Positions 8,053 to 38,700 of a DNA stretch of 64,000 bases are shown piece by piece. The stretch is from Anaerolineae bacterium. GTDB taxonomy: Bacteria > Chloroflexota > Anaerolineae > Aggregatilineales > UBA3940. The notes under the pieces were generated by a model. It made no database searches. It was given only the letters and a program-made list of their open reading frames with translations, and was not told the origin of the DNA. A program made the position numbers and the translations under genes. Each line of letters begins with the position of its first letter. The first letter of the stretch is position 1. The stretch lies in contig JAFGNO010000093.1 of the NCBI GenBank assembly GCA_016926985.1, positions 2,933 through 66,932 of the forward strand, written 5' to 3'.

Positions 8053-8367
8053 TTGCCCGTAGATTTGCATCAGATATAAACTTGCTATCCAAAATACTGT
8101 GTTGTGCTATACTGCAAATTGCATCTAGTAGTGTGAGCGCTCAAGAGATGCACGCTCCCCATCGGCCAGCCCCCCTCTGGTCGAGGGGAGCACCTCTTTT
8201 CTGTAGACCATCATCAAACAATCAACAGCTTCAGATTGGTTGCAAATATTGATGGCTTCATGCTAAGCTTGCTTGTTCCCGGAACATTGGATCTGAAGTG
8301 CCCGGCATAAGCAGGCAGCATGGCTGTACCAGCTATCTGGCTACCAATACACACAGGGGAAAACATC

Positions 8368-9297
8368 ATGCCCATGTTTCAAATCAGCAGCAGCAGTATG
8401 GCGCCGGTTTCGCAGAGCAATTTTCAATCGGAAAAGCAGCTCCAGCACCTGGTGGAAACCAACCTCGAAACGATCTTCAACTGCCGCTTTGTGGCAACTG
8501 AATTTTCAACCGGCGCCCAGCACGCCGGGCGCATTGATACACTGGCGCTTTCCGAAGACAACAACCCGGTGATCATTGAATACAAGAAAATCGAGAGTTC
8601 GGACCTGATCACGCAGAGCCTGTTCTACCTTTCCTGGATCGGCGATCACCGCGGCGATTTTGAAATTGCTGCACAGAAGAAGCTCGGGGCTGACGTGGAG
8701 GTGGACTGGTCCGATGTGCGCGTGCTGTGCATCGCACCGGGATACAAGAAGTATGATCTCCATGCAGTACGGGTGATGGGCGCTAATATTGAACTCTGGC
8801 GCTATCGCCTCTACGACAATCAGACCATCTATTTTGAGGAAATCTTCAAACAGGCTTATCCTGAAAATGACCTGGCAGGAGACAAGGACCCAGCCATGGT
8901 TGCAGCCGGCAAGAAGGGCGCGATCACCAGGGCCACAGCAACCTACACCTTTGAAGAACACCTCGATGGGAAACCGGAGAAAATCCGTTCTCTGGCTCAC
9001 GATGTGCGCGACTATATTCTCGGCCTGGATACAGCGATTGAGCAGAACCCCAGAAAGATGTACATCGGTTACAAGATTTCGCAGAACATCGTTTGCATGG
9101 ATGTTCAGAGCCAGCAAATCCGTTTGTGGCTCAAGCTGAAGCAGTCGGAAGTATCCGATCCTCCCTCCAATTATCGCGATGTGTCAAACCTGGGACATCA
9201 TGGAACCGGGGATGCGGAGTTCATCTTGAGATCGGAAGACGATTTTGAGAGAACGAAACCGTATATTGAAATGGCTTACCGGAAAATCGGCGGCTAG
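8368..9297 (+). CDS. NucS/DUF91-like PD-(D/E)xK nuclease-domain protein (R-M-associated type)
   Basis: MPMFQISS start with AGGGGA RBS. GRIDTLALSEDNNPVIIEYKK (D..ExK). Sits directly upstream of the hsdM fragment. Confidence 0.5.
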   Translation: MPMFQISSSSMAPVSQSNFQSEKQLQHLVETNLETIFNCRFVATEFSTGAQHAGRIDTLALSEDNNPVIIEYKKIESSDLITQSLFYLSWIGDHRGDFEIAAQKKLGADVEVDWSDVRVLCIAPGYKKYDLHAVRVMGANIELWRYRLYDNQTIYFEEIFKQAYPENDLAGDKDPAMVAAGKKGAITRATATYTFEEHLDGKPEKIRSLAHDVRDYILGLDTAIEQNPRKMYIGYKISQNIVCMDVQSQQIRLWLKLKQSEVSDPPSNYRDVSNLGHHGTGDAEFILRSEDDFERTKPYIEMAYRKIGG

Positions 9298-9497: not shown

Positions 9498-9672
9498 AGG
9501 AAAATTGAGTTATTTCTATCCGTCAGGTAAGGATCCACGATCACGCTGACAAGGTTAGGAAATTTACAAAACGACTAACAATACCATTTTAGGTAATTAA
9601 ATTCCGACTTTACTAGCGGAGTAAAAAACATTTGAATAATATTACAGTTATCTCCAAACAATCGAGTTGCCA

Positions 9673-11361: not shown

Positions 11362-12412
11362 TCCTAAAAGAAATTATCGGCATGCAATATCCTTCAAGGA
11401 AAACTATAAACCAGCACGAATTGTGTGGAGTGGATTGCAACACCCTGCGACAATTCATTATTCCGATGGCAGCAGAAGTCCGAGTACTTGCATAAGATGT
11501 TTAGATGCACCATGTATGTATTATTCTGAAGATGAAATCCAAATAGGAATTTTTACTGATTTCCCCTACGATAAAAACAATGAAGTATGTCCTACTAAGG
11601 CAATTTCTTGGGAAGAAGACTTCTCTTCACCTCAAATCAACAATGAAAATTGCATCTTTTGCGGTCTATGCATCCAAAGATGTCCAGCAAAAGCAATATT
11701 TTTTTCACAGGAATCAGCAATTGTCATAGATAATCTGAATGATCATTTTGTTGAACTTGGAGAATTTGTAAACGAAAAATCCCTTAGAGAAACAACTCAT
11801 CTATTCCATAACGCTAAAGAAGAAGGAGTCTATTTGCTCGAAAATGATGACGTACTCCAATTATCAAAAACCAAACTAGATCAAATTCTTCCAAGATCAA
11901 ATGCCCAGTTTCCTAATCACTTGTCAAGAAATCTTTTACTTGGATTAGGCGTGGGTGCTATGATGAGACGCTTGGGGGATGTCAATATTCGAATGGACTT
12001 ACTGTTTGGCCCACCAGGTGTAAATCAAGGTACAGGTGAGGTTGAATTTGGAAACGGTGTCTTAGATGCGCCAAGGAATATCTTAGATAATTATGCAACC
12101 TTGGTCACAAAATATAATTCCTCAAGAGATTCGCTCTTCCCTATAGTTATTGTTAATACACTACCAAATTCGCGATCCGATTATTGGTTAGTCATACAGG
12201 ATATACGCAAAGTCCTTGGCATTAAAATACAAACAATGTCAATTGGTCTATTATACATACTGCTTTGGAATAAACTTTCATTATCAATAATCGATGGTAA
12301 TGAATTTTATATTGATGCTGATAATCCATCACTGCGAGAGAAATTGACTACTCACCTACAGAGAGAAAGTAGTATCATTTTTGATCTTGGCTATCTTGAG
12401 AGTGAAAAATAG
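11345..12412 (+). CDS. 4Fe-4S dicluster-domain protein with unknown C-terminal domain (REase partner?)
   Basis: CIRCLDAPC...CP and CIFCGLCIQRCP ferredoxin-type motifs. Overlaps the upstream gene by 17 nt and the MTase 3' end by 38 nt. Confidence 0.6.
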   Translation: MLRPLSPKRNYRHAISFKENYKPARIVWSGLQHPATIHYSDGSRSPSTCIRCLDAPCMYYSEDEIQIGIFTDFPYDKNNEVCPTKAISWEEDFSSPQINNENCIFCGLCIQRCPAKAIFFSQESAIVIDNLNDHFVELGEFVNEKSLRETTHLFHNAKEEGVYLLENDDVLQLSKTKLDQILPRSNAQFPNHLSRNLLLGLGVGAMMRRLGDVNIRMDLLFGPPGVNQGTGEVEFGNGVLDAPRNILDNYATLVTKYNSSRDSLFPIVIVNTLPNSRSDYWLVIQDIRKVLGIKIQTMSIGLLYILLWNKLSLSIIDGNEFYIDADNPSLREKLTTHLQRESSIIFDLGYLESEK

Positions 12413-13187
12413 GCATGCTTACTTTCCACTCATGAATTCGGTCATTCGCAATTTCAATGTACTCCGGATTGATTTCGAAACCCAAATACTTGCGTCCCTC
12501 CATGTAAGCTGCTAAACACTCTGTTCCACTTCCAACAAAAGGGACTACAACAATATCGCCCTCTTTTGAAAAATGTTTAATTATTCTCAAGGAAATTGAA
12601 AGTGGTTTTTGAGTTGGATGATCTACTTTTTCAGCCTGGAATCTTTTTCCAGCCAGTACAGGGAACTTCCAGACATCCCCTGCTAGTCTCCCCTCTGGAT
12701 GTGGATGCCATACTTTTCCATTTTTCGTGACTTTATACTTCAACCTATCTTGGCTTTTATAAGGTTCCCTAATAGGGAAATAAGTATAGTTACTCCCTTT
12801 AGAAAACCATAATATTGGTTCATAATGAGCAGCTAATGTCCTTTTCGAATACCCAGCAAATCCATTTTCATAGAACCATATGATCTGTCTACGATAATCA
12901 AGCTTAATTTCAGACATGTAACAATGCAGCCAACACAAATGGTGATGGATACCATATACAAATATATTTCCCCCAGGTTTCAAGATCCGTTTTGCTTCAT
13001 CCAACCAACTTTTACTCCATGATAGCCAAGTATCTTTGTGGTCCTTTTCTTTATAGATACCAAAATCTTTCCCAATATTATAAGGGGGGTCTGCTATAAT
13101 TAAATCAGCAAATTCGTCCGGCAAAGCCTTCATTCCTTCAATACAATCCAGATTATGGATGATGTTTAAATCATTGGTTTTTTTCAT
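12375..13187 (-). CDS. DNA methyltransferase, N4/N6 family (beta-type order: DPPY first)
   Basis: IIADPPYNIG (motif IV), HPTQKP, VPFVGSGTE (motif I). Confidence 0.88.
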   Translation of the reverse strand: MKKTNDLNIIHNLDCIEGMKALPDEFADLIIADPPYNIGKDFGIYKEKDHKDTWLSWSKSWLDEAKRILKPGGNIFVYGIHHHLCWLHCYMSEIKLDYRRQIIWFYENGFAGYSKRTLAAHYEPILWFSKGSNYTYFPIREPYKSQDRLKYKVTKNGKVWHPHPEGRLAGDVWKFPVLAGKRFQAEKVDHPTQKPLSISLRIIKHFSKEGDIVVVPFVGSGTECLAAYMEGRKYLGFEINPEYIEIANDRIHEWKVSMPIFHSQDSQDQK

Positions 13188-14067
13188 TATTATTCTGCAC
13201 TATTAGAATATATTGGTGGTGAATATTAGGAACATATGCATAGGGATAACCATAAGGAAAAACTCGCTTATGGCGTTGATAGAGTATCGTGATCCCTTTT
13301 AGCTCAAACCCTCGACTTTCTAATTGCATCGCTAAATCAGCATGAAACATGTAATACTTCGATTTATGACGGAAATCGCTTACTATGACGGCCATATACT
13401 TTTCTGGTTTTAGAACACGAATAGTGTCACCAAGAATTGCCGATAAATTTCTTAAGAATTCCTGATAATCTTCAATATTTCCTAAATCTCTTTCATCATT
13501 ACTATATCTGGTGTCCAATCCATTTGCTATGCGTTCTTGTCTTACTTTATGATCTTCCTTATGAAGAATGTTCCAGTAAGGCGGACTTGTAACTACAAAA
13601 TCGACAGTATTTTCCTCTACGGTATCCAACAAATCCCTTGCATCGCCAACGTAAATTTCCTGTTGATACTGAGAGGGGAACATTGGGGCAATTTCATTAC
13701 TTAATCTTTCCTTGGCTAACTCTGCATAATGTGGATTTAATTCAAAACCAATCCCACGCCGATTATTTATCGCACATGCCTTTAATGTTGAGCCTACCCC
13801 GACAAAGGGGTCAAGAACTAATTGTCCCTCCTTGGTAAAGAATTTAATTAATCGACCGACATCAGTAAACGAAAAAGGGGCAGGATGTTGTTTTTCAATT
13901 TTGGTATCTGGATGCTTTGCGCCTAACCCCTTTTGGTTCCATACAGAAATTGTTTCAACTATCCATTCTTTTGAAGGCAGGTCATTAAGCTTGTTTCGGG
14001 GATCAACTCCAGGCGATGGATCCTCAAAAGCGCTTTCTTGCTGATCGTGATTCTCAATTACTTCCAT
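13171..14067 (-). CDS. DNA methyltransferase, N4/N6 family (SPPY type, motif I before motif IV)
   Basis: QHPAPF, LDPFVGVGST (motif I), VVTSPPYWN (motif IV). Confidence 0.88.
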   Translation of the reverse strand: MEVIENHDQQESAFEDPSPGVDPRNKLNDLPSKEWIVETISVWNQKGLGAKHPDTKIEKQHPAPFSFTDVGRLIKFFTKEGQLVLDPFVGVGSTLKACAINNRRGIGFELNPHYAELAKERLSNEIAPMFPSQYQQEIYVGDARDLLDTVEENTVDFVVTSPPYWNILHKEDHKVRQERIANGLDTRYSNDERDLGNIEDYQEFLRNLSAILGDTIRVLKPEKYMAVIVSDFRHKSKYYMFHADLAMQLESRGFELKGITILYQRHKRVFPYGYPYAYVPNIHHQYILIVQNNNEKNQ

Positions 14068-16388: not shown

Positions 16389-17669
16389 TTATTCCTGAGT
16401 TACATTACCATCTTCAGAAACCCATAGAAAGCTAAAATTGGCAGCTATTTTGAACCATTGAATCTCCTGCTTCAATCTGTGATAAGTAGGGAAGTCGGGG
16501 AGAGCTACAAAGAGGACCGCTCTACTGTTTTCCTGACGATATCGTATCATGTCATACACTGCAGCCTTAAACCAGTGTCGTGCTTGGGGAGCTAACCTGG
16601 TTCTGACAGTTCCTTTTGGGTAACCCTTCACGGTCACCCAGGCGTTTTGCTCATCAAACACTGCTTCTATATCTTTTCCTCTTTGTCGTGATCTGGTATC
16701 GGCTACTGACCGGATGGTGTATTCATTCAAGACCAGATACTCGACGATGCGAGACTGGATATTACCTTCCCAGAACCACGGTTCTTTTTCAGAATCGCAT
16801 GAATAATTGGCCGTCTCAATTTTCGTTGTATCTCCGATCCAAAAATTAAGAATTTTTCCCTCTCTCTTTTCGCGCTTAACTAATCCTTCTTTAGCTAGAT
16901 CACGACAGATTGAATTTGCTTGCTGTCGAAAGTTAAACCCCAGGTTTAAGGCAAGTTGATCATCATCAAGTCCACCTGAATGGGATTGGAGATGCTCAAT
17001 TACTCGCTCTCGTTGTTTCATCATCAGCTCCTTATCTACAGATTCGGTTGTGATTTTTCCGTTCTCATCTATCCACTTGAAGCAAACGAAGGGTATGTTA
17101 AGAAAGGCTCTTCTCAATAATGAATACCTGCGCCACGCTTCGCAATCAGGTAATGCAATAAAACCAACAGGAGATGAGTGAGAGAGAAAAGAATTGTTAT
17201 ATAAGTCGGAGATGCAATCGAATATTTCAACTACTTCAAACATACTATCAATCTGACATCCATGCTTTTCATTCGATGAATCTAGGTTATCCACCCTAAA
17301 CCCACGGTTTAGTTTACAGCCAACCACAAAGACTTCAAAATAAGGTATTCTTGAAGAACCAACAATCATACGGTATATTGGAAAACTGGCAGGTTGCCAA
17401 AAATCAGTTACCTGGTATCCGTTTTCCAAGAAAGAGAGCCTTAGTCTATTACGCAAACCTCCGACAGAATACCATAGGGGATTATGCAGATCCCCACTCC
17501 AATAGTACCTGATTCCAGAACTGTGAACCTCATGATGAATGTACTCTGGGTCTAATTTTTCAATATACATCCTCGCAGCCACTGAGGATATATTGAATTC
17601 CTCAGCAATTTGATCTGCATCAAATCCGCCATATATATTCTGTATGCGATTTTTAATTTTTTCTAACAT
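16389..17669 (-). CDS. two-wHTH protein with C-terminal PD-(D/E)xK-like nuclease domain
   Basis: 426 aa, AT-rich. DADQIAEEFNISSVAARMYIEKL and DDDQLALNLGF..ICRDLAKEGLVKRE (wHTH). C-terminal RQRGKDIEAVFDEQNAWVTVKGYP (D.E...K). Confidence 0.5.
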   Translation of the reverse strand: MLEKIKNRIQNIYGGFDADQIAEEFNISSVAARMYIEKLDPEYIHHEVHSSGIRYYWSGDLHNPLWYSVGGLRNRLRLSFLENGYQVTDFWQPASFPIYRMIVGSSRIPYFEVFVVGCKLNRGFRVDNLDSSNEKHGCQIDSMFEVVEIFDCISDLYNNSFLSHSSPVGFIALPDCEAWRRYSLLRRAFLNIPFVCFKWIDENGKITTESVDKELMMKQRERVIEHLQSHSGGLDDDQLALNLGFNFRQQANSICRDLAKEGLVKREKREGKILNFWIGDTTKIETANYSCDSEKEPWFWEGNIQSRIVEYLVLNEYTIRSVADTRSRQRGKDIEAVFDEQNAWVTVKGYPKGTVRTRLAPQARHWFKAAVYDMIRYRQENSRAVLFVALPDFPTYHRLKQEIQWFKIAANFSFLWVSEDGNVTQE

Positions 17670-27112: not shown

Positions 27113-28615
27113 ATGCCCATTCTGACCGAAGCTGACCAGACCCTGCTGCCGCTGGCACTCAGAGAAAACAAAGGCTGTGTCACTGCGTCGGAATGGTATT
27201 TCGGGCAGACGCCGATGCCGCTGCAGTATGCCTTTCACCAGATCCTGGTCCCGAACGTCACCTACCTGGCCGGCATCGCCGCCGGAAAAACCACCGCCGT
27301 GGCTCAATCCTACACCCTGGACTGCATCAGCATCCCGCATTTCAAGGCCCTCAACACCTCCGTTACCTCCACGCAGGCGGAGCTGGTGTTTGAAATGATC
27401 AACGGCTGGATTGAGACCAACGACCACCTTGCCCACCTGGTAGAAGACATCAGCCTGCGCCCCTACCCGGTCATCCTCTTCAAGAACTATTCCGAATACC
27501 ACTTCCGTACCGCTGGAAAGGATGCACGCTTTATACGCGGCCAGGAATATGACCGCATCAATTACGACGAAGCCGGACTGGATTACGCCGGGGTGTCTCT
27601 GCAGACCCTGCGCGGCCGGTTGCGCGGCAAGCGCCCGGACGGGAACACCCGCATGGCACGCATGGACGTGACCACCTCCCCGACCGACGCCCCCTGGCTG
27701 GAGCAGCGCTTCAACCGCGGCGTCAAAGACCATCCCACGGCTGCCCTGGAGATGTACCGGTCCATCCGGGCGACCATCTATGACAACACGCACCTCACAC
27801 CGCAGCAGGTTGCCCTGATGGAGGCGGACTATACCGATGAGATGATCGACGTGGAGCTGCGCGGATTATTCCCCAAATACGGCCTGACCATGTTCCCGCG
27901 GGAGCATATCGATGCCTGTACCGACATGGAACTGAACGACCTCATGACCGAAGCCATCCGGCCAGAGACCGGCAAACCCCAATCCGGCTACCGGTACATC
28001 GAACACCCGCGCTACGGGATCACGCATTTCGAACTCCCGGCGGAAAAACAGGGACGTTATATCCTGGCCGGTGATCCCGGCATGGGGGACCCGCCCAAAC
28101 GTAACGCACCGGTTGTATTGGTGGCCCGGATCGACCGGGAACCGTGGGACATTGTGTATTTTGACTGGGTGTATGGGCGCGGGTCGTATAAGCCCTTCCT
28201 GAATTCCTTCAAGTATGCTATCGAAAAGTACCAGCCTGTGCTCCGGGGACTGGATGCCACCGGCACGCAGCGGGCCATTGAGGAACTGGCCTTTGAAAGT
28301 GAAGGCATCGTCGTGGAGGGGTTGAATTTTCAACGGGACAAGGACGCCATGATCAATGCGCTGTCTCTATGCATCACCGGGCACCGCTTCCGCTGGCCGG
28401 TGATCCGTGGCCTGATCAATCAGATGCGCACCTACAAACGGGAAGAAGACAAGAAGCTGGCCCAGGATATTGTGATGACCCTGGCCGAGATTGCGTTCCT
28501 GGCCCGCTGGCTCCCGGAGGAGATGGGGGCAGACGTTGCCTACACCCGCGCCGGTGCCTTTCGTAACCGCAAGCAGCGCACCACCATGGGCCGGCGGGGA
28601 AGGACGAGGAGGTAG
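27113..28615 (+). CDS. terminase large subunit
   Basis: 500 aa. Walker A LAGIAAGKTTAV. Acidic motifs YDRINYDEAG. Lies between HNH and (across the island) portal. Confidence 0.8.
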   Translation: MPILTEADQTLLPLALRENKGCVTASEWYFGQTPMPLQYAFHQILVPNVTYLAGIAAGKTTAVAQSYTLDCISIPHFKALNTSVTSTQAELVFEMINGWIETNDHLAHLVEDISLRPYPVILFKNYSEYHFRTAGKDARFIRGQEYDRINYDEAGLDYAGVSLQTLRGRLRGKRPDGNTRMARMDVTTSPTDAPWLEQRFNRGVKDHPTAALEMYRSIRATIYDNTHLTPQQVALMEADYTDEMIDVELRGLFPKYGLTMFPREHIDACTDMELNDLMTEAIRPETGKPQSGYRYIEHPRYGITHFELPAEKQGRYILAGDPGMGDPPKRNAPVVLVARIDREPWDIVYFDWVYGRGSYKPFLNSFKYAIEKYQPVLRGLDATGTQRAIEELAFESEGIVVEGLNFQRDKDAMINALSLCITGHRFRWPVIRGLINQMRTYKREEDKKLAQDIVMTLAEIAFLARWLPEEMGADVAYTRAGAFRNRKQRTTMGRRGRTRR

Positions 28616-28617
28616 GG

Positions 28618-28881
28618 ATGCCGGTGTACACCTATGTCTGCCCGCAGTGCAGCCGGGTTTTCGATGTCGAAAAGTCGATGACGGCGCCCCACCCTGTTCA
28701 CTGTGAGGACTGCGGGTATCAAGGTCCGTTGATGCGACGCTTCAATCAACCTTCAATCAAGTACAGATGTTCAGGCTTCTACACCACAGACAAGAAACTG
28801 GACACGTTCGTTCCTGGCTATGACGGGCCGGATGAAGTGACGTTGATGGAGATGGGGGAGGATGTGCCTGGGGAGGGGTGA
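28618..28881 (+). CDS. FmdB-family zinc-ribbon protein
   Basis: MPVYTYVCPQCSRVFDVEK...HCEDCG. Contains palindrome copy 10. Confidence 0.8.
   Translation: MPVYTYVCPQCSRVFDVEKSMTAPHPVHCEDCGYQGPLMRRFNQPSIKYRCSGFYTTDKKLDTFVPGYDGPDEVTLMEMGEDVPGEG
28657..28674. repeat. 18-bp palindrome family copy 10
   Basis: GTTTTCGATGTCGAAAAG (inside the FmdB gene). Confidence 0.9.
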
Positions 28882-28884
28882 GGA
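28813..28884 (+). repeat. 72-bp direct repeat, copy 1 (3' end of the FmdB gene)
   Basis: CCTGGCTATGACGGGCCGGATGAAGTGACGTTGATGGAGATGGGGGAGGATGTGCCTGGGGAGGGGTGAGGA. 69/72 identical to 30068-30139. Confidence 0.95.
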
Positions 28885-29050
28885 GACGCTGAAACGCGAT
28901 AATAATCCCTAAATGAAAAAATTCTTCAGCTGATTTATGAACTGGATCACTAAATCGTTGTTCAATGGAGCGAACCATGCTAGGATCGAGTGTGTCTTCA
29001 CGGCAGTTCTACCGCGATGGCTAATAATTACGGTGTCTAGTTTACTAATT

Positions 29051-29818
29051 ATGGATCACATACCTAATAACCAAAGAGTAACCCAAAGAAACTTTCTACA
29101 ACTCTTTTTTGGATCTATTTGGGGTATTATCCTATCGTCATGTAATTTTCGTATAAGCACTCTAACACCTACTATTCAAAACACCAAGACACCCGCTCCT
29201 GAACCATCCAGCCCCCCCTCCCCCAGGAATACCTCAACGCCTACCAAGACCCCATCTCAAACCCCTACACACACTACAATACCTACTCAGGATTACTGCA
29301 AAACCGAGGTTGTTAATGATCTGAATCGGCTTGTCTCCACATTATCAGATCAAAACATCTTGTATCAAAACGAAAAAGGAGATCATCCATATTCTGATGG
29401 AACACTATACATAAATGTTGGGGATTGGGAAGTAGAGATCAATAATCAAATATTGGAATATATCGAGCAGTGCGATTTAGAGTTAGCCCTTCTTGAAGAA
29501 ATCGTAAATGAGTTCAGGCTCTTTGAAATTACCAATCGTGATGGTGACTTGATTCTCAACACCCGATCCGCTCCCATATCGGGTCCAAACCAGGGAGAAG
29601 GTGAATATTCGATCGCTTTCACGGGAGGAATTGGCAGGGTATTTTATCTGGCTGTCTTAGTTCAAAGAGAATGGATACCTGTTGAGAATTCTGAGATCGC
29701 TTTTGGATTTCTGATCGCAAAACCAACCAACAACCCTGACGAAGGCGATGCTGGGGGAAGTGGCAGCACAAGCGACACTAACAATACTAGTAGTTGGAGT
29801 TCCACGAGCGATCAGTAG
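29051..29818 (+). CDS. lipoprotein with Pro/Thr/Ser-rich linker
   Basis: From MDHIPNNQRVTQRNFLQLFFGSIWGIILSSC (lipobox LSSC). The ORF is open from 28937. Confidence 0.55.
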   Translation: MDHIPNNQRVTQRNFLQLFFGSIWGIILSSCNFRISTLTPTIQNTKTPAPEPSSPPSPRNTSTPTKTPSQTPTHTTIPTQDYCKTEVVNDLNRLVSTLSDQNILYQNEKGDHPYSDGTLYINVGDWEVEINNQILEYIEQCDLELALLEEIVNEFRLFEITNRDGDLILNTRSAPISGPNQGEGEYSIAFTGGIGRVFYLAVLVQREWIPVENSEIAFGFLIAKPTNNPDEGDAGGSGSTSDTNNTSSWSSTSDQ

Positions 29819-29911
29819 TGGACCCATATAGTTGGACACTTATTGAGGCATCCTTATGGGGATGCATTATACTGAGTAATAAGCGAAAATTCAGAATACC
29901 GTGGATTTTAA

Positions 29912-29992
29912 GCATACCTCCTGTTGCCTAATCATGAGCGTCCCCATCAGGCATTGGATTATAAAACACTGGCAGAAATTTATTTCTGTGTT
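29912..29992 (+). pseudogene. remnant of a DDE transposase/integrase C-terminus
   Basis: LPNHERPHQALDYKTLAEIYF matches the conserved YN..RPH.aLgy.TP.e tail of rve-domain transposases. Only about 27 codons are present. Confidence 0.6.
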
Positions 29993-30067
29993 GACGGGGG
30001 ATCTAATGTTGGGTTCCCCCTAAACCTTTATGGAGCACATAAAGTCCAGCTAGTTCGGGTTGCCTCA

Positions 30068-30139
30068 CCTGGCTATAACGGGCCGGATGAAGTGACGCTT
30101 ATGGAGATGGGGGAGGATGTGCCTGGGGAGGGGTGAGGA
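30068..30139 (+). repeat. 72-bp direct repeat, copy 2 (orphan FmdB 3' end)
   Basis: Encodes ...PGYNGPDEVTLMEMGEDVPGEG-stop with no zinc-ribbon part upstream. Confidence 0.95.
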
Positions 30140-30223
30140 AACTGGGAGGCCAAGGTTTCCAGCGGCAATAGATTATGCCTATCGTAACCATCCGAATTGC
30201 CTTGCTGCATTAGTCTTTACCGT

Positions 30224-31798
30224 CTAATATCTTGCATTTGTAATTCTGGATAATGCTTTGTAGAAATCTTCCTCATCAATCATCAAGTTGGTAGTATCAA
30301 TTTCTTCAATTTGTAGCAACGCAGAATTAAGATCAAAGCTTCTGCGAATGCAATTATATGCGCCTTCACGAGCAACGAAGGCGATATCGGCACCAGTAAG
30401 GCCAAGTAATTGATTGCTTAATTCCTCAATATGGATATTCGGTGAAAGAGGCATTCCTGATATGCACTTAGAAAAGATATCAAAGCAGCCCTTCTTGGTA
30501 GGTTTCTTTACCTCGATATGGTAATCAAACCTCCCTGGTCTCACCAATGCTTGGTCTAGTAACTCTGGACGATTGGTTGAGCCCAATACTCGAATATTCC
30601 CATAATTCTCAAGACCGTCCATTAATGATAGCAATTGATTAACAAAACGCGAATCTAATCTAAGGTTTTCTTCACCTGATCGTTGTTGAGCAATGGAATC
30701 AATTTCATCAAAGAATATTATTGCTGGTTCCAATTCTTGAGCCTCTTCAAAAATCATACGAAGATTTTTCTCAGATTGCCCATGATACTTATTGAGTAGT
30801 TCAGGGCCTTTCACACCGATAAAGTGTGCATTAATTTCATTTGCAATTGCTTTGGCAATCATAGTTTTGCCACACCCTGGAGGACCATAAAGCAATATCC
30901 CTTTATGAGGGATAATTTTCATGTATTCAAACAGGTTTGGCTGCTTCAACGGTAATTCAATTACTTCTCTAATTGTCCCGATGATCTCATCTAAACCACC
31001 GATATCCTCAAATGATACCTCTGGAATATCCCGTTTCCTCTTTTCGCGCAGCTCTGTTTCAAATGAAATTCTTCCAAATGAAATTTGTTGTGATCCATTG
31101 TCCACTTCTTCCTTTTTCGGTTGAATTCCTGTAATTTTCTCTTCAATTGTGTAGCCATCGTCAATTTCTTGTCGCTTCAGCTCAAATTGCTCATCGGTAT
31201 TCGGATCGATTTCATTCGGCAACTTAGACAAGATTATGTCTATATTATCTACATCAAAATACGGGCAAAATGAGAGTAACTTTGATCCTGCTTCATCAAC
31301 TAGGATTTCCTTAATCTTCTCTTTATCGATTTGCCATTTCTCGTTGCTGAAACTGCCAAAGTCGTACCAAATCCTTCCATTGTACTGACGATAACCCCAA
31401 GAATTCGTGGGATGATGATATCTATTTATGGACACTAGATGTCTACATTGCCAGCCTTCCTTAATATCTTGATCAATGTAACAATACTTTGCTCCTAAGT
31501 AGTTCATCCCAGATGCACAGGACATAGTATTTTTTAAGTTCCGTATTTGATCTGACGAGGCAGTATTTCCATTTATGAGAATTTCCGTTCCTTTCCAATT
31601 TTGGATCATTTCATAGATAATTTGGAATATTTGATAATGCTCGACGAATTGGGTGCTATCAAATTCAATTGAATTTGTCTTTGAGCTTTCAGTAAAAGTG
31701 TATGTATCAAATTTCTTACACATCCTAATAACTTTTGGATAATTTTGTGAACTTGATTTTGAAAACCTAAGTGTAACTAGAAAATCTGATTTATCCAT
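30224..31798 (-). CDS. classical-clade AAA+ ATPase (CDC48/FtsH-like module) with an unknown ~260-aa N-terminal domain
   Basis: [20 protein letters not shown] (Walker A), [12 protein letters not shown] (Walker B), [20 protein letters not shown] (SRH / Arg fingers). Confidence 0.88.
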
Positions 31799-32096
31799 TT
31801 TCAGAACCTCGGAACCTAAGTAAGTTAAATAACTTTAGCTGAGACGCACGAGCTCATCAACTCAAGTTTTTCAGATTGACACTTTAGCTCAATCAACTGT
31901 CAACCGCTGCAGATCCTCAACTACAATCTGAAAACATCATAGAGACGAGACTAATTGTATAGGTGCCGGAATTATTGCCAAACTCAGTTTCAGCAACAGG
32001 AATTCGACCCAATTTTTTAACCATCTCCTAAGTAACTCGTGCGGTCTGATCCTGATAGCCTTCTACCTAACTATAGGCAACGTTAGAGGAGCCTTT

Positions 32097-33065
32097 TCAA
32101 ATATTTAATAAAGGTTTTTCAAAAAACCATAACGGACTCGATGGGACTTCATAATCTGAAATGTCCTCATGAAGAAACCAGGTAAGCAGCTCTCTTAATG
32201 CCTCCATCGCGTTCTTAGTAGATGGATAGTCATTCTCCGCATTATGAGCCAGATCATTTCTACTCTTTCTTGCCTTGTGAAGTCTATCTGCCAAATCCTC
32301 AGAGAAAATACCCGCCGTAAGTAATATTTCTGTCTGAATAGCAGCTGTGTAAGTTCTAGTATCCTTTAATCGATTTAACCGGTTCTTATTTTCAATTTCA
32401 TCACGATACTTCCTCCATTCATGAGCAATAAGTTGTTCACATGCAATCCAAGAATTAAGGAGGGAAGTGTCAAGATGATATCTTGAGAACGATGAATAAG
32501 CAGTAACGATGAACGCAGGCAAGCTTAAAGAAACGGATTCGAGTTTGGTTGCAAGATCTAAATTAGCGACTTTATAAATGATCTCAATACTGGAATTTAA
32601 GGAGGTCCACATAAGTTCGTCTTCTTCATTTTTGCGACTTGAATCAAATGGCGCTAGATTATAGCTAGGCTTGAAAGACACTGAGGGGTAGAGGATAGAA
32701 ACATGACCATTATGTATTTCGCCAACACAAAGGCGAGATGGAGTAGCAGCCTCAGAAATCAATCCGTTTAGTGTCAACTCACAGATTAGACGATTCAGTA
32801 GTCTGCAGGAGTTATGTTCAAAATCGAGTTGCAAGTTCAGATAATCTAAATTTAGATGTCCCAAATCATTCTCCCTTCGACCTAATAGATCATCGGGGAT
32901 AGGAAGGAATAATCCTCCCATTGCTGTGATGTGGATTCGATAATCGGAGTTAACTGCAACTGTTCTAATAATTTTGTGAGCGCTTTTTGGGTTTTCAAGA
33001 TTGACTTCAGTTAAAAATGTGAGTGGATCGAGATAAGTTCCGATGAAATATTTCGCTTGGTTCAC
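32097..33065 (-). CDS. HEPN-domain protein (Abi-like), unknown N-terminal domain
   Basis: C-terminal helical region with LHKARKSRNDLAHN (Rx4H HEPN motif). Confidence 0.55.
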   Translation of the reverse strand: MNQAKYFIGTYLDPLTFLTEVNLENPKSAHKIIRTVAVNSDYRIHITAMGGLFLPIPDDLLGRRENDLGHLNLDYLNLQLDFEHNSCRLLNRLICELTLNGLISEAATPSRLCVGEIHNGHVSILYPSVSFKPSYNLAPFDSSRKNEEDELMWTSLNSSIEIIYKVANLDLATKLESVSLSLPAFIVTAYSSFSRYHLDTSLLNSWIACEQLIAHEWRKYRDEIENKNRLNRLKDTRTYTAAIQTEILLTAGIFSEDLADRLHKARKSRNDLAHNAENDYPSTKNAMEALRELLTWFLHEDISDYEVPSSPLWFFEKPLLNI

Positions 33066-33258
33066 GCTGTCACTCCGATTTACAAACTCATAAATATAAC
33101 CTAACAGTTATAGTTACTGGCATGCCTGGTACTTGCTGAAAAGATACAAGATAACGATCTCATAATTGATATTGAAACCTGAAACCCCAATAGTCAAAGC
33201 ATCGTCGAGACAATTCCTTGGTATGTTGTTATGCGAAAGTTGATTGTTCACCCAGCCA

Positions 33259-33417
33259 TTATTTTGGCTTGCTTGGCCTAGGTTTCGGTTTTTCGGGCGG
33301 TGGGGCTGGGACCCGTTGACCTTTTATTGCGTCATTGCCACTACCGATTTTTTTATCAGGAGTACCGGTTTTCTTTTCCTCCAGAAATATTGCATTTGGT
33401 TTCCTTCTGAGTAACAT
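33259..33417 (-). CDS. 52-aa Lys/Pro-rich peptide (candidate)
   Basis: TAGGAG RBS overlapping the upstream stop. MLLRRKPNAIFLEEKKTGTPDKK...PPPEKPKPRPSKPK. Confidence 0.35.
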   Translation of the reverse strand: MLLRRKPNAIFLEEKKTGTPDKKIGSGNDAIKGQRVPAPPPEKPKPRPSKPK

Positions 33418-33425
33418 TTTTACTC

Positions 33426-33827
33426 CTAAAGGTTTGAGTGTGTAAAAATTGCAGCGAAAATTACGCCCACTACAAATAAAATACCGCCTAATGCATTCAA
33501 AATGCCTGTGAGAATATCCTGCCATCCACCAGGATGATTATCATAAATTTTTTCTATATCAACTTGCTTAATCGCCTTCCTCAATGCCCAATTGCTGGAG
33601 TAGAAGGATAATAAAACAATAGAAATGCTTATAGCCCATAAAATCCAAGCCACTAAGATGTAATTGGGATTGACTACTGAATTGCTGCCAATAATGTCTT
33701 TTATAAATGCAAAGGTAATTCCTAACGCGCCACCCGATAACGCGATAAGGTTTTTATCGTAATCATCCTGAGCTTTTTGCTCTGCAGTCATCAAGTTTGT
33801 CCTATATTTTTCGAGTAAATCAGACAT
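33426..33827 (-). CDS. three-TM membrane protein
   Basis: 133 aa from MSDLLEKYRT (AGAGGA RBS). TM segments LIALSGGALGITFAFI, ILVAWILWAISISIVLLSFY, ILNALGGILFVVGVIFAAIF. Confidence 0.6.
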   Translation of the reverse strand: MSDLLEKYRTNLMTAEQKAQDDYDKNLIALSGGALGITFAFIKDIIGSNSVVNPNYILVAWILWAISISIVLLSFYSSNWALRKAIKQVDIEKIYDNHPGGWQDILTGILNALGGILFVVGVIFAAIFTHSNL

Positions 33828-34199
33828 TTTTTTCCTCTTGCTCGATTGGATTATCAAAAAAATCCTCCCCTTTTTAGGGAGTCTATAGCACACGAACACT
33901 TCGTCAAGATTTTAATAACCTTCGCCAAGGCAACAGAAACTGCGAGTAGAACGAGGTCCCTCAAGCTTACCTTCACTAATATGGAATCAAATTTGTCTTC
34001 CTGAATTATTCCGGAATTCAACTCATAAAGTAGCCGTTAAGCGATCAGCCCCTTCGAACTAAAGCGCTGTTATTCGTCCCAAATCCTGCTTTCTAAATAA
34101 AGAGATAGTCTCCCACCAGACAAATCGTTGCATTTCCTCGACCGATTCCAGAGTGAAGTTAGCCGGAGATGAGACGACCCAAACAAAGATCTGTGGTGA

Positions 34200-34850
34200 T
34201 TAAACAAATGCTTTAAGAAAGCTTTCAAAGCTCTGAATATGTCCGGTCTGGTCCAAACGAATTTGAAGCTGTTCTAAATATTTGGAATGTAATAAAGCTT
34301 TGGGTTGGCTTTTTGAATAAGTCAAATTCCTATATTTGTCATTCAATGCAGCAATTAGATATTTCTTCGCAAACTGAGCTCTTGACAGATCTTCTATTGC
34401 CGGTAATTGTTCAGGGTCTTGACTTCCTACATTGAAAAATCTTTGATAGGTTCTTAATCGAGAAGATTGGGAGTTTCGACGAATTATCTTTCTATTGCCA
34501 AGAGCCCAAGTCTCAAAGCAAAAATGCTGAACCACAATCTTAACTGGTACTCGACAAGGAAATTGGACTAAGTGGGACTGGATTTCCTCGTATTTTTCAT
34601 CTCTCGACATTTCTTCAGAGTCTATTGATATCACAAGCCGGTCAAAATTTGTGTGAGAATTTACATCAGAAATAGCATTCTCAATAACAGTAAAATAACG
34701 TGGGTATCCACCACCCGTTATGAGGTAGCAATCATCATTCTTAATCTCATCGATATAGTTCTTCAGAGTTAGGCGCGGATTAATTAAAGGGATCCAATGT
34801 TTATAAACCTTCTGCTCAGTTACCCCCTCAACCACAACATAGATATTCAT
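34200..34850 (-). CDS. TOPRIM-like protein (DUF4276/RloB-like)
   Basis: MNIYVVVEGVTEQKVY (conserved EG.TE start). RLVISIDSEE (acidic DxD-like). ATGA coupling to the ATPase gene. Confidence 0.55.
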   Translation of the reverse strand: MNIYVVVEGVTEQKVYKHWIPLINPRLTLKNYIDEIKNDDCYLITGGGYPRYFTVIENAISDVNSHTNFDRLVISIDSEEMSRDEKYEEIQSHLVQFPCRVPVKIVVQHFCFETWALGNRKIIRRNSQSSRLRTYQRFFNVGSQDPEQLPAIEDLSRAQFAKKYLIAALNDKYRNLTYSKSQPKALLHSKYLEQLQIRLDQTGHIQSFESFLKAFV

Positions 34851-35977
34851 TCAACACCGTCAGTATAGAAAGGATCATTAATAAGCTGAATAAACGCTTC
34901 TTGCTTAGATTTTCCAAACCTACCCTCAAGCTCTTCACCATACAATATTTGAATATCGGTACCTTTCCTATGGAATAAGTACCAGTTCCGAGAAGGAATG
35001 TCATTAATAATGTAAGGATGATGACTCGTGACAAAGAATTGAATTTGTTTCTCAAGACGAAGAATGAAATCAGGAAAAAAATCAATAGCACTAATTCCAA
35101 GTGAATTCTCATACTCATCGATGATATAGATGGAATCATCCGGAGCAGAATAAATATCAGTAAGAATTAGGAGGATTTTTTGCATACCAGAGGACATATC
35201 AGGGAGTGGAATCCAGTCCTGTTGATTTCGTTCACGAATACAAAAAACCGGTACATTTAAAGGGAAAGCTACATTAGGCGAAACTTGAGCTAAATCTCGA
35301 AAGCTGAAATCACTAACAAATGAGAATGCGATTTTAAATTGCTCTTCAATTTCGGTGAAGAGATCTGGGAAATACTTATCCATCAAATACAATGTAGTAT
35401 TCAATCCAAACCCGGTCTTGTATAAAGCGCGTAGAGTTGGTTCGTTGTCAAACTTTTGATGAAGCTCTAAACTGACAGCCTCTAAATGAGATAATCTCGC
35501 CAAATCATCATGGAAGAATCGACGTCTCCTAATATTTTCGAATCCATTGAATATTGGCTGAACAACTTCCTCCTCCCTTAATAACGAAATTGCAGTCTTT
35601 CTAGCGGGAAGTTTTGGAAGATCAGTTGAACTGAACCTAAATTTTCCTGGCCTTCGATCTACTAAAACTTGACTTTCCTCATTCCCCAATATCTCAAGTT
35701 TCTCAAAAATTATCCTAGAATCCTCATCGGGGTTTACATCATCTGTTTCAATAACCCACTTGTAGGTTATGCCTGATTGCAGAAAAGTAATATCCCACTT
35801 TCCTTGCACAAACTTGTCTGCAGCGACAAAGGAACCAAGATTAAATAAAGTATTCAATAACCGAGTCTTCCCTGTTGCAGAATCTCCAACTAACAAATTC
35901 ATCTTTTGGAATTCAACGGGAGTAAAAGACCAATGTGTATGACCCTTACCATGACATTCATATCGTAGAATTTTCAT
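34847..35977 (-). CDS. ABC-type (AAA_21/OLD-like) ATPase
   Basis: LLVGDSATGKTRLL (Walker A), MSSGMQKILL (signature), IYIIDEYENSLG (Walker B), FVTSHHP (H-loop). Confidence 0.8.
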   Translation of the reverse strand: MKILRYECHGKGHTHWSFTPVEFQKMNLLVGDSATGKTRLLNTLFNLGSFVAADKFVQGKWDITFLQSGITYKWVIETDDVNPDEDSRIIFEKLEILGNEESQVLVDRRPGKFRFSSTDLPKLPARKTAISLLREEEVVQPIFNGFENIRRRRFFHDDLARLSHLEAVSLELHQKFDNEPTLRALYKTGFGLNTTLYLMDKYFPDLFTEIEEQFKIAFSFVSDFSFRDLAQVSPNVAFPLNVPVFCIRERNQQDWIPLPDMSSGMQKILLILTDIYSAPDDSIYIIDEYENSLGISAIDFFPDFILRLEKQIQFFVTSHHPYIINDIPSRNWYLFHRKGTDIQILYGEELEGRFGKSKQEAFIQLINDPFYTDGVE

Positions 35978-36124
35978 TGCATCCTACCTTTCTAATCCCT
36001 AGGAAAAATCTGTCCAAAATAATAAGTAATTAATAAAGTCAACTTTTTTATGAGGGTCCGTAAAAATTATCTACTCTACCGAATATTGTTCTATTTCGAC
36101 TAACAAGATTGATTATTGGTTTCT

Positions 36125-36724
36125 TCAAGCAAAGATATCTGTCAACACTGACCTATTAGAATCAGTATCACCGAATACCTGTAAACCTCTATTAAGTAGT
36201 TGAGTAGTTGCATCAGAGTTCGAATACTGTTTCCTCAAAACGTTAAACATTCGCTTAAACCGTTGATTCAATTTTGGCGTGACGATTGAAAGCATAGAAA
36301 CAAGGCGGAGATCCTTCGTATATCCGTATTTAAGGTCAACAATGTTTTCTATAAAGTAGCAAAGTTCCCATTCTTCAAGTACATCAGGAGAAGGGATATG
36401 GGAAATATCGTAACTATCGATGCCTCTGTCCAAAAGCCAAAGGTTTCTATACTTTTCGAACGCTTCATCTGAAGGTATCAATGGACCCAACTCTATTAAT
36501 GTAATAGCCAAGTGAATAAGCATGTCCATTATACGATGATTAAGCCTCAAGGTTTTCCCCTCTAAATTAAGTAAAGCTGCTTTTGTTGCCAATTCGATAA
36601 CGTGAGCATGAAGGAAGGGTAAAGATCCGTTATTAAAATCCCTTTTCTTCAACAAGATGATGTCTAGCATAAAATCATCAGCTAGGCGGCCAAAATTACC
36701 AGCAACCACATCCATACTTTCCAT
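36125..36724 (-). CDS. hypothetical helical protein (HEPN-like N-terminal helices?)
   Basis: 199 aa. LHAHVIELATKAALLNLEGKTLRLNHRIMDML resembles the HEPN helix pair. No Rx4H motif seen. Confidence 0.5.
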   Translation of the reverse strand: MESMDVVAGNFGRLADDFMLDIILLKKRDFNNGSLPFLHAHVIELATKAALLNLEGKTLRLNHRIMDMLIHLAITLIELGPLIPSDEAFEKYRNLWLLDRGIDSYDISHIPSPDVLEEWELCYFIENIVDLKYGYTKDLRLVSMLSIVTPKLNQRFKRMFNVLRKQYSNSDATTQLLNRGLQVFGDTDSNRSVLTDIFA

Positions 36725-37038
36725 TGCACATCCCTAATAATGCCGAGAAAAATCAAATTCAATTTCGATACTCTGCTGATTTTATTCAGTTTGACGCATC
36801 TGGTAGTAATTTCAGAAATTATGCAGCGATTAATTCCACCTCATATTTCTCTCTGAAAGTGATTATCTTTCAGAACACATCAAATTTAGCACATCTTCCT
36901 CCATTTGCCACTTCTTCTTGAGAGCCATATCTTCTTATCAGCGATCAGAAATGGTGTTTTCATAAACTACTCTTCACATTGCAAATACCGTTCATATCCC
37001 ATATATCCATACTGTTGTATTATTTATAATCCATACGG

Positions 37039-37067
37039 TTGACCACTATTACATTCTGTGATACAAT
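37039..37067 (+). promoter_or_regulatory. promoter of the portal/structural operon (TTGACC-17-TACAAT with TGn)
   Basis: TTGACCACTATTACATTCTGTGATACAAT. Confidence 0.55.
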
Positions 37068-37176
37068 CCCAATTAAGTAGAACCACTTCTGCACAAACAG
37101 AAGCAGTTCCAAACTGCCTTTCCCCCATTTAGGCTCTACCCCCTTTTGAGTTGCAAATTCATAGTAAGGATGACCG

Positions 37177-38700
37177 ATGCTGACCTATCCCGATTATTCG
37201 GATCTCAGCATGTCGCCGTTCAGCGATGGCCTGCAGCTCCTGTGGGACCAGGCGTTCACCGAGCGGCAGAAATACCACCATTACTTCTCCGGGGAAGTGT
37301 TCCATGAACGCGTCCAGGTGGAGGACGAGGACACCCAGGGTGATCCCCCCCTGCTCTACCCCGTGGGGATGAACCTGGTTCGGACCCTGTGTGTCTCCCA
37401 ATCGGAAGCCCTGTTTGGTGAATGGGAAGATATGGTCATGCGCTTCCGGGCCCGCCAGGACGTTGCCGAAGACACCTCCACCGAAAAAGCAATCGAATGG
37501 GCGCATCAAATCCTGACCGATAACCACTTCGAGACCCTCGGCTATGAATTGGCCCTCGATCGTGAAGTGTACAAGGGCTGTGCGGTCAAGATCAGCTTTG
37601 ATCTCACCCTGCCATCAAAAATCCGGCTGTCCCGCCTGCCACTGGATTACTTCTACCCGATCTGGGACCCCGACAATCCGGACCGGCTGCTGGAAGCGTA
37701 TCTGGCCGTCCCGATGTCCCTGGAGCAGGCACGAGCCCGCTACGGGGTCAAGATGGAAAACGCCCACGATATCGTTTTCCGCGTGGAGCACTGGACCGAA
37801 ACAACCTACGAAAGCCGCCTCAATGATATCCGGATTGACGAATATTCCGGTCACAACCCCTGGGGTGTTGTCCCAATCGAATACATCCCCCGCATGCGAA
37901 CGGATGACTGGTACGGCGACAGCCTGGCAAAGGAAATCATCACGGTGCAGGATGAGCTCAACATGCGCCTGGCCGACATGGGAGAAGCCGTCAACTACAA
38001 TTCGCACCCGATCCGCTGGGGCCGGGACCTTCCCAAGCAGTTCAACGCCCGCAACTTCCCGGTCGGTGCCTTTGCCTTCTGGAACCTGGGGCGTTCCCTG
38101 CAGGACAAAACCCCTGAAGTCGGTGTGCTTGAAGTCAAGAACCCGGTCCCGAAGGAAGGGCTGGATTACATCAACTTCCTGTATGACTGGACCCGGACCT
38201 CTTCCTTCTCCCCTCCAATCGCCTTTGGGGAGGATGACGGCGGCGGTCAACGCTCCGGGCGGACGTTGCAGATCCGCATGTGGCCCCTGATCCGGGCCAC
38301 CCGCCGCAGCCGGGCCTATTTCGGCGCCGGCATGATCCGCATTCTCCATAAAGCGGCTGCCATCATGCGGCAAAAGAACCTGGGTAATTCCTATGCGACA
38401 CAGCGGGTACTGGAAGGCCGACTGGTGGCACAGTTTGCGGAAATCATGCCGCAGGACGAAGCCGCAATTGTCGACAAGGTTGTACGCCTGCTGACCCTGC
38501 CGGTGCCACCCATGTCGCTGGAAACTGCGACCAAAGAGCTTGGCTATGGCGCCCGTGAAGTGGATCGCATTCGAGCCTATCTCTCAGATGAGCTGTTTCA
38601 GGACTATCTCAACAAGAAGCCGGAAGTGTCCACCCCTGGCGAGGAAACACTGGAACCACAGGATACGAAGGATCGCAAGGCCGACCGGAACCCAGAATGA
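37177..38700 (+). CDS. portal protein
   Basis: 507 aa. First structural gene after TerL (across the island). Size and position fit. No motif verified. Confidence 0.7.
   Translation: MLTYPDYSDLSMSPFSDGLQLLWDQAFTERQKYHHYFSGEVFHERVQVEDEDTQGDPPLLYPVGMNLVRTLCVSQSEALFGEWEDMVMRFRARQDVAEDTSTEKAIEWAHQILTDNHFETLGYELALDREVYKGCAVKISFDLTLPSKIRLSRLPLDYFYPIWDPDNPDRLLEAYLAVPMSLEQARARYGVKMENAHDIVFRVEHWTETTYESRLNDIRIDEYSGHNPWGVVPIEYIPRMRTDDWYGDSLAKEIITVQDELNMRLADMGEAVNYNSHPIRWGRDLPKQFNARNFPVGAFAFWNLGRSLQDKTPEVGVLEVKNPVPKEGLDYINFLYDWTRTSSFSPPIAFGEDDGGGQRSGRTLQIRMWPLIRATRRSRAYFGAGMIRILHKAAAIMRQKNLGNSYATQRVLEGRLVAQFAEIMPQDEAAIVDKVVRLLTLPVPPMSLETATKELGYGAREVDRIRAYLSDELFQDYLNKKPEVSTPGEETLEPQDTKDRKADRNPE

Follow-up and report, generated by a model that had tools for sequence, protein, structure and literature searches.

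Does a pair of overlapping genes carried between the terminase and portal genes of a phage region in an Anaerolineae bacterium encode a small nuclease under the control of an ATPase, and does this pair belong to a defence system that is already described? The pair lies in a stretch of DNA of 64,000 nucleotides (nt), here called the window (assembly GCA_016926985.1, contig JAFGNO010000093.1, positions 2,933-66,932, forward strand), and coordinates given without a locus name refer to it. The first gene encodes an ATP-binding cassette (ABC) ATPase and the second gene a 216-residue partner, which an earlier sequence-only reading had taken for a Toprim-like protein of the DUF4276/RloB kind. The answer that we favour, and hold to be probable on balance, is that the two genes form a mobile cassette, carried here as prophage cargo, that pairs a competent ABC ATPase with a small, stand-alone Toprim-superfamily nuclease. 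The features of the pair are listed below; the open reading frame (ORF) coordinates, the ATGA coupling and all motifs quoted in the sequence-only reading were found as it described them.

34847..35977, minus strand: ORF of the ABC-type (AAA_21) ATPase, 376 amino acids (aa), the proposed sensor and neutraliser subunit
34200..34850, minus strand: ORF of the Toprim-like partner, 216 aa, the proposed nuclease effector
34847..34850, minus strand: ATGA stop/start overlap (translational coupling), with the partner ATG over the ATPase TGA
35864..35887, minus strand: Walker A (P-loop) GDSATGKT, ATPase residues 31-38; all of 40 homologues have G31, G36 and K37
35180..35197, minus strand: ABC signature MSSGMQ, ATPase residues 261-266; S262, S263, G264 and M265 are invariant
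35096..35131, minus strand: Walker B and D-loop IYIIDEYENSLG, ATPase residues 283-294, with D287 as Walker B Asp and E288 as catalytic Glu
35015..35029, minus strand: H-loop TSHHP, ATPase residues 317-321; T317, S318, H319, H320 and P321 are invariant
34815..34838, minus strand: partner VVVEGVTE, residues 5-12, at the end of strand beta1, with Glu8-Gly9; the proposed Toprim catalytic Glu
34611..34625, minus strand: partner IDSEE, residues 76-80, closing strand beta3; we propose that Asp77-Ser78-Glu79 corresponds to the DxD metal site of Toprim proteins
34506..34529, minus strand: partner QHFCFETW, residues 108-115, after strand beta4; Q108, H109, E113 and W115 are invariant

In the window translation, the partner begins with MNIYVVVEGVTEQKVY, and the longer motif ISIDSEE covers its residues 74-80. 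These motifs are not chance occurrences, given the AAA_21 profile score, the invariance in 40 homologues and the recurrence of the pair in 77 of 77 testable loci. Promoter-like sites are fewer than in shuffled sequences, a count that is uninformative.

Organization of the gene pair

The pair is an autonomous, horizontally mobile two-gene cassette. We sampled 80 loci from contigs of one genome per species, 77 of which could be tested for the upstream gene, and in every one of them (77 of 77) the gene immediately upstream, on the same strand, encodes a homologue of the ATPase. Among the 69 full-length pairs, the two genes overlap by 4 nt in 50 (43 with ATGA, 6 with GTGA and 1 with TTGA), and the spacing is at most 5 nt in 67. 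Identity to the window pair is correlated between ATPase and partner (r=0.86), a figure to which shared phylogeny contributes. No fused form was found, as none of 269 partner-family proteins is longer than 300 aa.

A conserved third gene is absent from the approximately 250 ORFs that lie within two genes of the 77 pairs, according to Pfam and PADLOC scans; among the two closest ORFs on either side, 186 and 163 different Pfam families are represented, each at most 3 times. The four island neighbours of the pair in the window were also searched by tblastn against 86 loci, and no co-occurrence was found (two chance-level matches for the AAA+ protein and none for the other three).

Two copies look decayed or atypical. 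At locus L055 (8971-10656) the ATPase match is split over two frames and the partner match starts from residue 33, and at locus L062 (744-2837) the two genes are separated by a gap of 324 nt.

The ATPase

The ATPase matches the Pfam model AAA_21 (PF13304) over the complete profile (positions 1-304 of 304; E=7.2e-17), with 62.8 bits against a cut-off of 27. In the family alignment, which contains 40 sequences with homologues 42-61% identical to the window ATPase, Y284, E288, Y289, E290, S292, L293 and G294 of the Walker B region are invariant and D287 is conserved in at least 90%. The AlphaFold 2 (AF2) model, with a mean predicted local distance difference test score (pLDDT) of 89.2 and a predicted template modelling score (pTM) of 0.89, has the fold of an ABC/SMC head. 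Because the catalytic motifs are invariant or nearly so and the fold matches are those of ABC proteins, we predict that this AAA_21-type ABC ATPase is catalytically competent; on the same score, motifs and model, the ABC-type assignment of the sequence-only reading stands. Outside the catalytic motifs, residues ~357-376 (34850-34900; SKQ..F.QLINDPFY..G) are among the most conserved segments, and this conservation makes the C-terminal tail a candidate for docking of the partner.

A Foldseek search with the ATPase model reached 370 chains of the PDB at E<=1e-3. The top matches are Rad50 heads (7e-12, template modelling (TM) score up to 0.67), followed at E ~1e-10 by PtuA (of Septu and of retrons Ec78, Ec83 and I-A), SMC heads and AriA. 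With Rad50 and SMC heads as the best structural matches, the pair might be an accessory of DNA repair or recombination that acts on host or phage DNA ends, comparable to Rad50-Mre11 or RecF-RecR. RecR has a Toprim domain and its partner is the ABC ATPase RecF, a partnership that we count in favour of such a role. However, the model of 376 residues has no long coiled-coil, and the sequence affinity to defence ATPases is closer (AbiLi 2.6e-19, PDC-M38A 3e-13). The distribution of the pair is moreover patchy, it is AT-rich in 65 of 65 loci, and it is carried on plasmids and in a prophage island, so that a repair function appears very improbable to us.

In PADLOC, AbiLi is the best match of the ATPase and PDC-M38A also matches, both with the values just given, while mad3 (3.6e-6) and HEC-01A (1e-5) match weakly. 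The PADLOC model PDLC02980, which is named 'AriA', also matches (1.8e-18), and it appears to be a generic AAA_21 model, as it has the same length of 304 positions and its match coordinates are identical to those of Pfam AAA_21. In a sequence search of the PDB, AriA is the sole solved protein that was reached, and weakly (E=1.2e-3, residues 253-324 only). The ATPase appears to be the orthologue of no single solved defence ATPase.

The partner protein and its family

The exact database match of the partner is annotated as 'hypothetical protein [Anaerolineae bacterium]'. The partner has at least 386 homologues, which are ~218 aa long, and only one of the 120 listed carries a Pfam annotation, namely RloB (PF13707; homologue P0078). 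An exhaustive profile search collected 676 clusters at 50% identity with E<=1e-3, 294 of them at E<=1e-30. Two alignments were used for conservation analysis, A1 and the broader A5, which holds 139 divergent members with 30-50% identity to the window partner.

The AF2 model of the partner (pLDDT 95.6, pTM 0.90) consists of a beta-alpha-beta-alpha-beta-alpha-beta core (~residues 1-116) followed by a helical C-terminal half, with beta1 at residues 3-7 and beta3 at residues 71-77. Glu8-Gly9 is invariant in A1 and conserved in at least 90% of the 139 sequences of A5; D77 and S78 are invariant in A1, where position 79 is always E or D. In most members the proposed metal motif has the form D-x-E, compared with the canonical D-x-D. 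E113 is one of only two residues that are fully invariant among the 139 members of A5. The helical half is specific to the family, contains the invariant residues P146, R157, Y164, Y178, K180, R198 and H204, and is the evident candidate region for recognising the substrate.

Is the partner a Toprim protein? When the 139 members were searched against 24,736 Pfam models, the sole recurrent matches were RloB (47 members, best 4.7e-8), DUF4276 (47 members, best 9.5e-8), DUF3226 (8 members, best 4.5e-6), OLD-like_TOPRIM (4 members) and Toprim (1 member), all of which we take to be members of one Pfam clan. In PADLOC, nearly all matches of 37 partner-family members, although weak throughout, are to Toprim-type partners of AAA_15/21 ATPases (HEC-01B, AbiLii, PDC-M38B, mad4 and GajA). 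Both DUF4276 and RloB belong to the Toprim domains and carry E and DxD motifs; Glu8 at the end of beta1 and Asp77-Ser78-Glu/Asp79 at the end of beta3 stand at the Glu and DxD positions described for these two families (PMC12065111).

For a direct comparison with DUF4276, we used HEC-01, the 'Hma-embedded candidate 01' of PADLOC, which was found embedded in Hma systems and consists of the Pseudomonas agarici ATPase WP_060782633 and the DUF4276 protein WP_060782632. The tested sequences of HEC-01A and HEC-01B were taken from the supplement of bioRxiv 10.1101/2024.01.29.577857. HEC-01B is a genuine DUF4276 protein, and PF14103 is annotated in 120 of its 120 listed relatives; its homologues were collected and aligned (28 sequences). 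In an end-to-end alignment of the partner with this clade, E8/E10, D77/D66, E79/D68, C111/C99 and E113/E103 are superposed and invariant in both, and IDSEE of the partner aligns with D66-Q67-D68. Judging from these motifs and matches, membership of the partner in the Toprim superfamily is very probable.

Several results speak against this assignment and the nuclease reading built on it. The window partner itself matches DUF4276 (PF14103) with 21.6 bits (E=2.8e-4), below the gathering cut-off of 30.2. Foldseek searches of the PDB and BFVD with the partner model gave no significant match, and the top 50 contained no Toprim protein, which leaves the Toprim fold of the partner unconfirmed. Hidden Markov model (HMM) searches of PDB sequences with the A1 and A5 profiles reached no solved Toprim protein. 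Finally, hhalign finds no significant similarity between the partner family and the HEC-01B clade of DUF4276 proteins (probability 0.7-0.8%, E ~0.07-0.09).

The missing structural match, the non-significant profile-profile comparison with DUF4276 and the D-S-E motif in place of a canonical DxD would also fit a partner that is a degenerate Toprim or another alpha/beta domain, serving as an adaptor or regulator of the ATPase and having no active nuclease. Against this, the acidic residues E8, D77 and E113, which stand at the strand ends where they are expected, vary little or not at all across the 139 members, position 79 is always E or D, and the recurrent matches are to models of the Toprim clan. 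We therefore consider an inactive adaptor improbable, and an active Toprim nuclease remains the reading that we prefer.

As for the family name, the window partner has no match to RloB (PF13707) at E<=1, and only some family members match it, weakly. The sequence-only reading of a DUF4276/RloB-like protein is thus borne out at the level of the family, where the recurrent matches are confined to the Toprim clan; the window protein itself falls under the DUF4276 cut-off and lacks an RloB match. At threshold, no Pfam or PADLOC model matches the window partner. By the sequence comparisons made here, the partner family is separate, sizeable and unannotated, and about equally distant from RloB and DUF4276.

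Comparison with known systems

The architecture of the pair is already known from AbiL/RloAB, HEC-01, PDC-M38 and MADS3-4 and, more distantly, from PARIS, OLD and Gabija. The closest analogue that has been tested is HEC-01, which likewise has two overlapping genes, the first for the ABC ATPase and the second for a small Toprim-like protein (~200 aa) that stands alone. Matches to the HEC-01B model are weak, at 3.2e-3 for the window partner and 3.8e-5 for the best family member. However, the two ATPases reach only E=0.087 in BLASTP, the motif is D-Q-D in HEC-01 and D-S-E in the pair, and the helical C-terminal halves differ. The annotation also separates the two groups, with PF14103 in all 120 listed relatives of HEC-01B compared with any Pfam family in 1 of 120 listed members of the window family. 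Membership in HEC-01 was rejected, since BLASTP, profile-sequence and profile-profile comparisons are all non-significant and the architecture alone is shared.

AbiL (AbiLi and AbiLii, a plasmid-borne abortive infection system of Lactococcus) and RloA/RloB (found in type I restriction-modification (R-M) loci) likewise combine an AAA_21-type ATPase with a small RloB-like Toprim partner. The AbiLi match of the window ATPase covers only positions 68-253 of the 326 in the profile. For AbiLii, the window partner gives E=0.018, and 11 of 37 family members match (best 2e-4).

PARIS shares with the pair the split into an ABC ATPase plus a Toprim effector and is often found on mobile elements or phage satellites. 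AriA has 464 aa compared with 376 aa in the window ATPase, the TM score between them is ~0.42-0.44, and the sequence match is limited to residues 253-324; AriB has ~300 aa compared with 216 aa in the window partner. A PARIS identity of the partner was rejected, as no match to DUF4435 (PF14491) or AriB was found for the window partner or for the 37 and 139 family members. The earlier statement that the partner is of a family other than AriB/DUF4435 agrees with this, no such match having appeared in any scan.

OLD and GajA also join an ABC ATPase to a Toprim nuclease with a Glu and DxD-type metal site, and weak matches to OLD-like_TOPRIM and GajA occur in the family. The OLD/GajA form was rejected, because the domains are fused there and are encoded by two separate ORFs here (fusions in 0 of 269), and no helicase of the UvrD/GajB type recurs as a neighbour. 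MADS resembles the pair in Mad3, an AAA ATPase, and Mad4, a DUF4276 protein, and mad4 is weakly matched by 2 of 37 family members. MADS is a multigene system containing a methyltransferase, whereas only a few loci of the window family adjoin mad2-like genes. Membership in MADS was rejected on the NCBIfam MAD3 equivalog score (15.7 bits against a cut-off of 420), the lack of a conserved neighbour and the absence of mad genes from the window island.

The pair is therefore a new family within the class of ABC-ATPase and Toprim modules that has already been described. To call it distinct and poorly characterised, as the sequence-only reading did, is fair in that no Pfam or PADLOC model claims the partner at threshold. 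The pair is less novel than that wording implied, since AbiL, RloAB, HEC-01, MADS3-4 and validated toxin/neutraliser pairs had been described before, so the class has better precedents.

Distribution and mobility

The family occurs in at least 15 phyla, namely Chloroflexota, Desulfobacterota, Nitrospirota, Pseudomonadota, Bacteroidota, Ignavibacteriota, Acidobacteriota, Poribacteria, Latescibacterota, Fibrobacterota, Calditrichota, Spirochaetota, Planctomycetota, Bacillota and NC10, and also on cyanobacterial plasmids. Its distribution is patchy, and most of the hosts are uncultured environmental bacteria. The guanine-plus-cytosine (GC) content of the pair is below that of its flanks in all 65 loci with enough flank (among L001-L080), by 11.8 points on average (Wilcoxon p=2e-12). 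The mean GC is 37% in the pair and 49% in the surroundings, the difference is at least 10 points in 39 of 65 loci, and it is independent of the GC of the host.

The pair was found on seven plasmids. For example, in the 15-kb Acinetobacter plasmid pAV2 (NC_010310.1; locus L086), the pair and a RelE/ParE toxin-antitoxin (TA) pair are enclosed by two identical ISNCY transposase genes, similar in layout to a composite transposon. In pMsip02 (NC_012972.1; locus L085), a 9.8-kb inovirus-like episome with a zonular occludens toxin gene, the pair adjoins an integrase gene. A further contig (JGI 3300075492; locus L083, 2916-12000) contains hsdR, hsdS and hsdM of a type I R-M system, then the pair, and then genes for TIR-domain, PLD-nuclease and integrase proteins, which recalls the 'restriction-linked ORF' layout of RloA/RloB.

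A role of the pair in defence or as a TA module is plausible by analogy with AbiL and its relatives, and several results weigh against the preferred reading where it leans to defence. Most loci lie amid housekeeping genes, many of them as lone insertions, and R-M or MADS-type genes are found within two genes of the pair in only ~10-15% of loci. Of 50,697 phage records, just one contains a homologue. Only one pair with a DUF4276 partner has been put to the test, HEC-01, and it did not protect E. coli against the phages tried. Among the approximately 250 neighbour ORFs, R-M and MADS matches amount to a handful, at most 3-4 per family, as raw counts without a genome-wide background. As so few neighbours match R-M or MADS models, the association with defence islands is modest. 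The enrichment in defence islands that the sequence-only reading looked for is thus weak: ~10-15% of loci are near R-M or MADS-type genes and some are clear islands, but most are amid housekeeping genes.

Lone insertions of many chromosomal copies amid housekeeping genes, carriage on plasmids of ~10-15 kb, the RelE/ParE and ISNCY setting on pAV2 and the lack of defence by HEC-01 would all suit an addiction or TA module, in which the Toprim protein would be the toxin and the ATPase the antitoxin, stabilising the mobile element with no dedicated anti-phage role. AAA-plus-Toprim pairs have also passed toxicity-neutralisation assays (PMC10440598). Such a reading is compatible with defence, however, as many TA-like modules are abortive-infection systems (PMC10440598), and an ATPase of 376 aa with all catalytic motifs invariant would be costly for a simple antitoxin. 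Some loci, moreover, lie inside clear defence islands. We regard pure addiction as rather unlikely.

The prophage and its cargo

The window is a phage or prophage. Its gene order is holin, HNH, large terminase, low-GC island, portal, capsid, tail tube and giant tail genes. No close relative of the portal protein was found in IMG/VR, and the window contains no tRNA that could mark an integration site. The features around the pair are:

27113-28615: large terminase (Terminase_6N match)
28890..37100, no strand assigned: low-GC cargo island of ~8 kb with the pair, between terminase and portal, 38.7% GC compared with ~58% in the flanks
30224-31798, minus strand: AAA+ protein of 524 aa, with a CDC48/PAN-like domain (TIGR01243, 2.5e-86), an IetA-like match (1.1e-39) and an unmatched N-terminal region of 240 aa
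32097-33065, minus strand: ORF of 322 aa beside the AAA+ gene, with faint HEPN-type matches only (Csx1/Csm6, 3.5e-3)
37177-38700: portal (SPP1_portal match)

The pair is transcribed opposite to the phage structural genes, and all ORFs of at least 150 aa in the island downstream of 30,200 are on the strand opposite to terminase and portal. The island has the appearance of a slot for cargo ('moron') genes within the packaging module. With its position between large terminase and portal, the pair might also serve the phage itself, in genome processing near the packaging genes or in counter-defence. This seems to us most doubtful, for the island is compositionally foreign (38.7% vs 58% GC), the pair is on the opposite strand to the structural genes, and its homologues, found in a single record among those 50,697 phages, are mostly chromosomal with unrelated neighbours. 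Cargo of the prophage, as in the preferred reading, fits these features better.

Besides the pair and the AAA+ gene, the island contains several unknown ORFs. The AAA+ gene (30224-31798) and the 322-aa ORF may form another two-gene conflict module; no IetS-like protease is evident beside the IetA-like AAA+ gene. At the left end of the island, a 75-nt direct repeat with 95% identity (28813-28887 and 30068-30142) brackets a low-GC segment of 1.2 kb, and the ORF inside it (28937-29818) has no Pfam or PADLOC match. Through this repeat, the 3' end of a coding sequence (...PGY[D/N]GPDEVTLMEMGEDVPGEG*) is present twice, and the layout is as if a small element had been inserted with a long target duplication.

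A second low-GC block of the window (~9-18 kb) contains two adjacent type II DNA methyltransferases on the minus strand (12375-13187 and 13171-14067), two large unassigned ORFs that are possible restriction subunits (9667-11361 and 11345-12412), and an unknown ORF of 426 aa at 16389-17669. Just upstream of this block, the gene at 8320-9297 strongly matches the PADLOC candidate PDC-S18 (2.6e-108). With the pair, the IetA-like AAA+ gene, the two methyltransferases and the PDC-S18 candidate, the prophage carries several defence-type cargo genes.

Proposed mechanism

AbiL and MADS3-4 are ABC-plus-Toprim systems, and in PARIS the scaffold AriA detects Ocr and sets free AriB, a Toprim protein that cleaves tRNA (PMC11464382). 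Pairs of an AAA protein and an RloB-like Toprim protein act as toxin and neutraliser in E. coli (PMC10440598). From the precedents of PARIS, AbiL and these AAA:RloB-like Toprim toxin/neutraliser pairs, we infer complex formation, nuclease activity, a trigger, a target and any defence phenotype of the pair, as set out below.

The overlapping genes would yield the two proteins in a fixed ratio, which would then assemble into a complex in which the ATPase keeps the Toprim effector inactive. The ATPase would sense a trigger, for example a protein of the phage or a disturbance of the cell, and binding or hydrolysis of ATP would release or activate the effector. The effector might bind metal via Glu8, Asp77, Glu79 and probably Glu113 and cut nucleic acid (tRNA or DNA), and this cleavage could lead to growth arrest of the infected cell or block a competing phage.

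A more far-reaching proposal, which we advance tentatively and at somewhat less than an even chance, is that the family is a distinct anti-phage or abortive-infection system missed by tools of the DefenseFinder and PADLOC type. Such a system would respond to a trigger of its own and act on a nucleic-acid target of its own, the latter set by the helical C-terminal half, and would be deployed here by a temperate phage against its competitors.

Significance

The concept of an ABC ATPase paired with a Toprim protein is not new in itself, and in this respect the pair is conceptually unsurprising; its use is for annotation and as a compact model. With 1.8 kb and two genes, it offers a test case for the minimal control of a stand-alone Toprim nuclease by an ABC ATPase. 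As the family is midway between RloB and DUF4276, it helps to connect these two poorly understood families. A profile made from alignments A1/A5 and A6 could let defence-annotation tools label hundreds of pairs that are now 'hypothetical protein' entries. The window also shows a prophage from a little-studied phylum with several AT-rich blocks of defence-type cargo. If the pair is active, it would add a widespread and unannotated branch to the immune and toxin modules that combine an ABC ATPase with a Toprim protein, next to OLD, Gabija, PARIS, AbiL, HEC-01 and MADS3-4.

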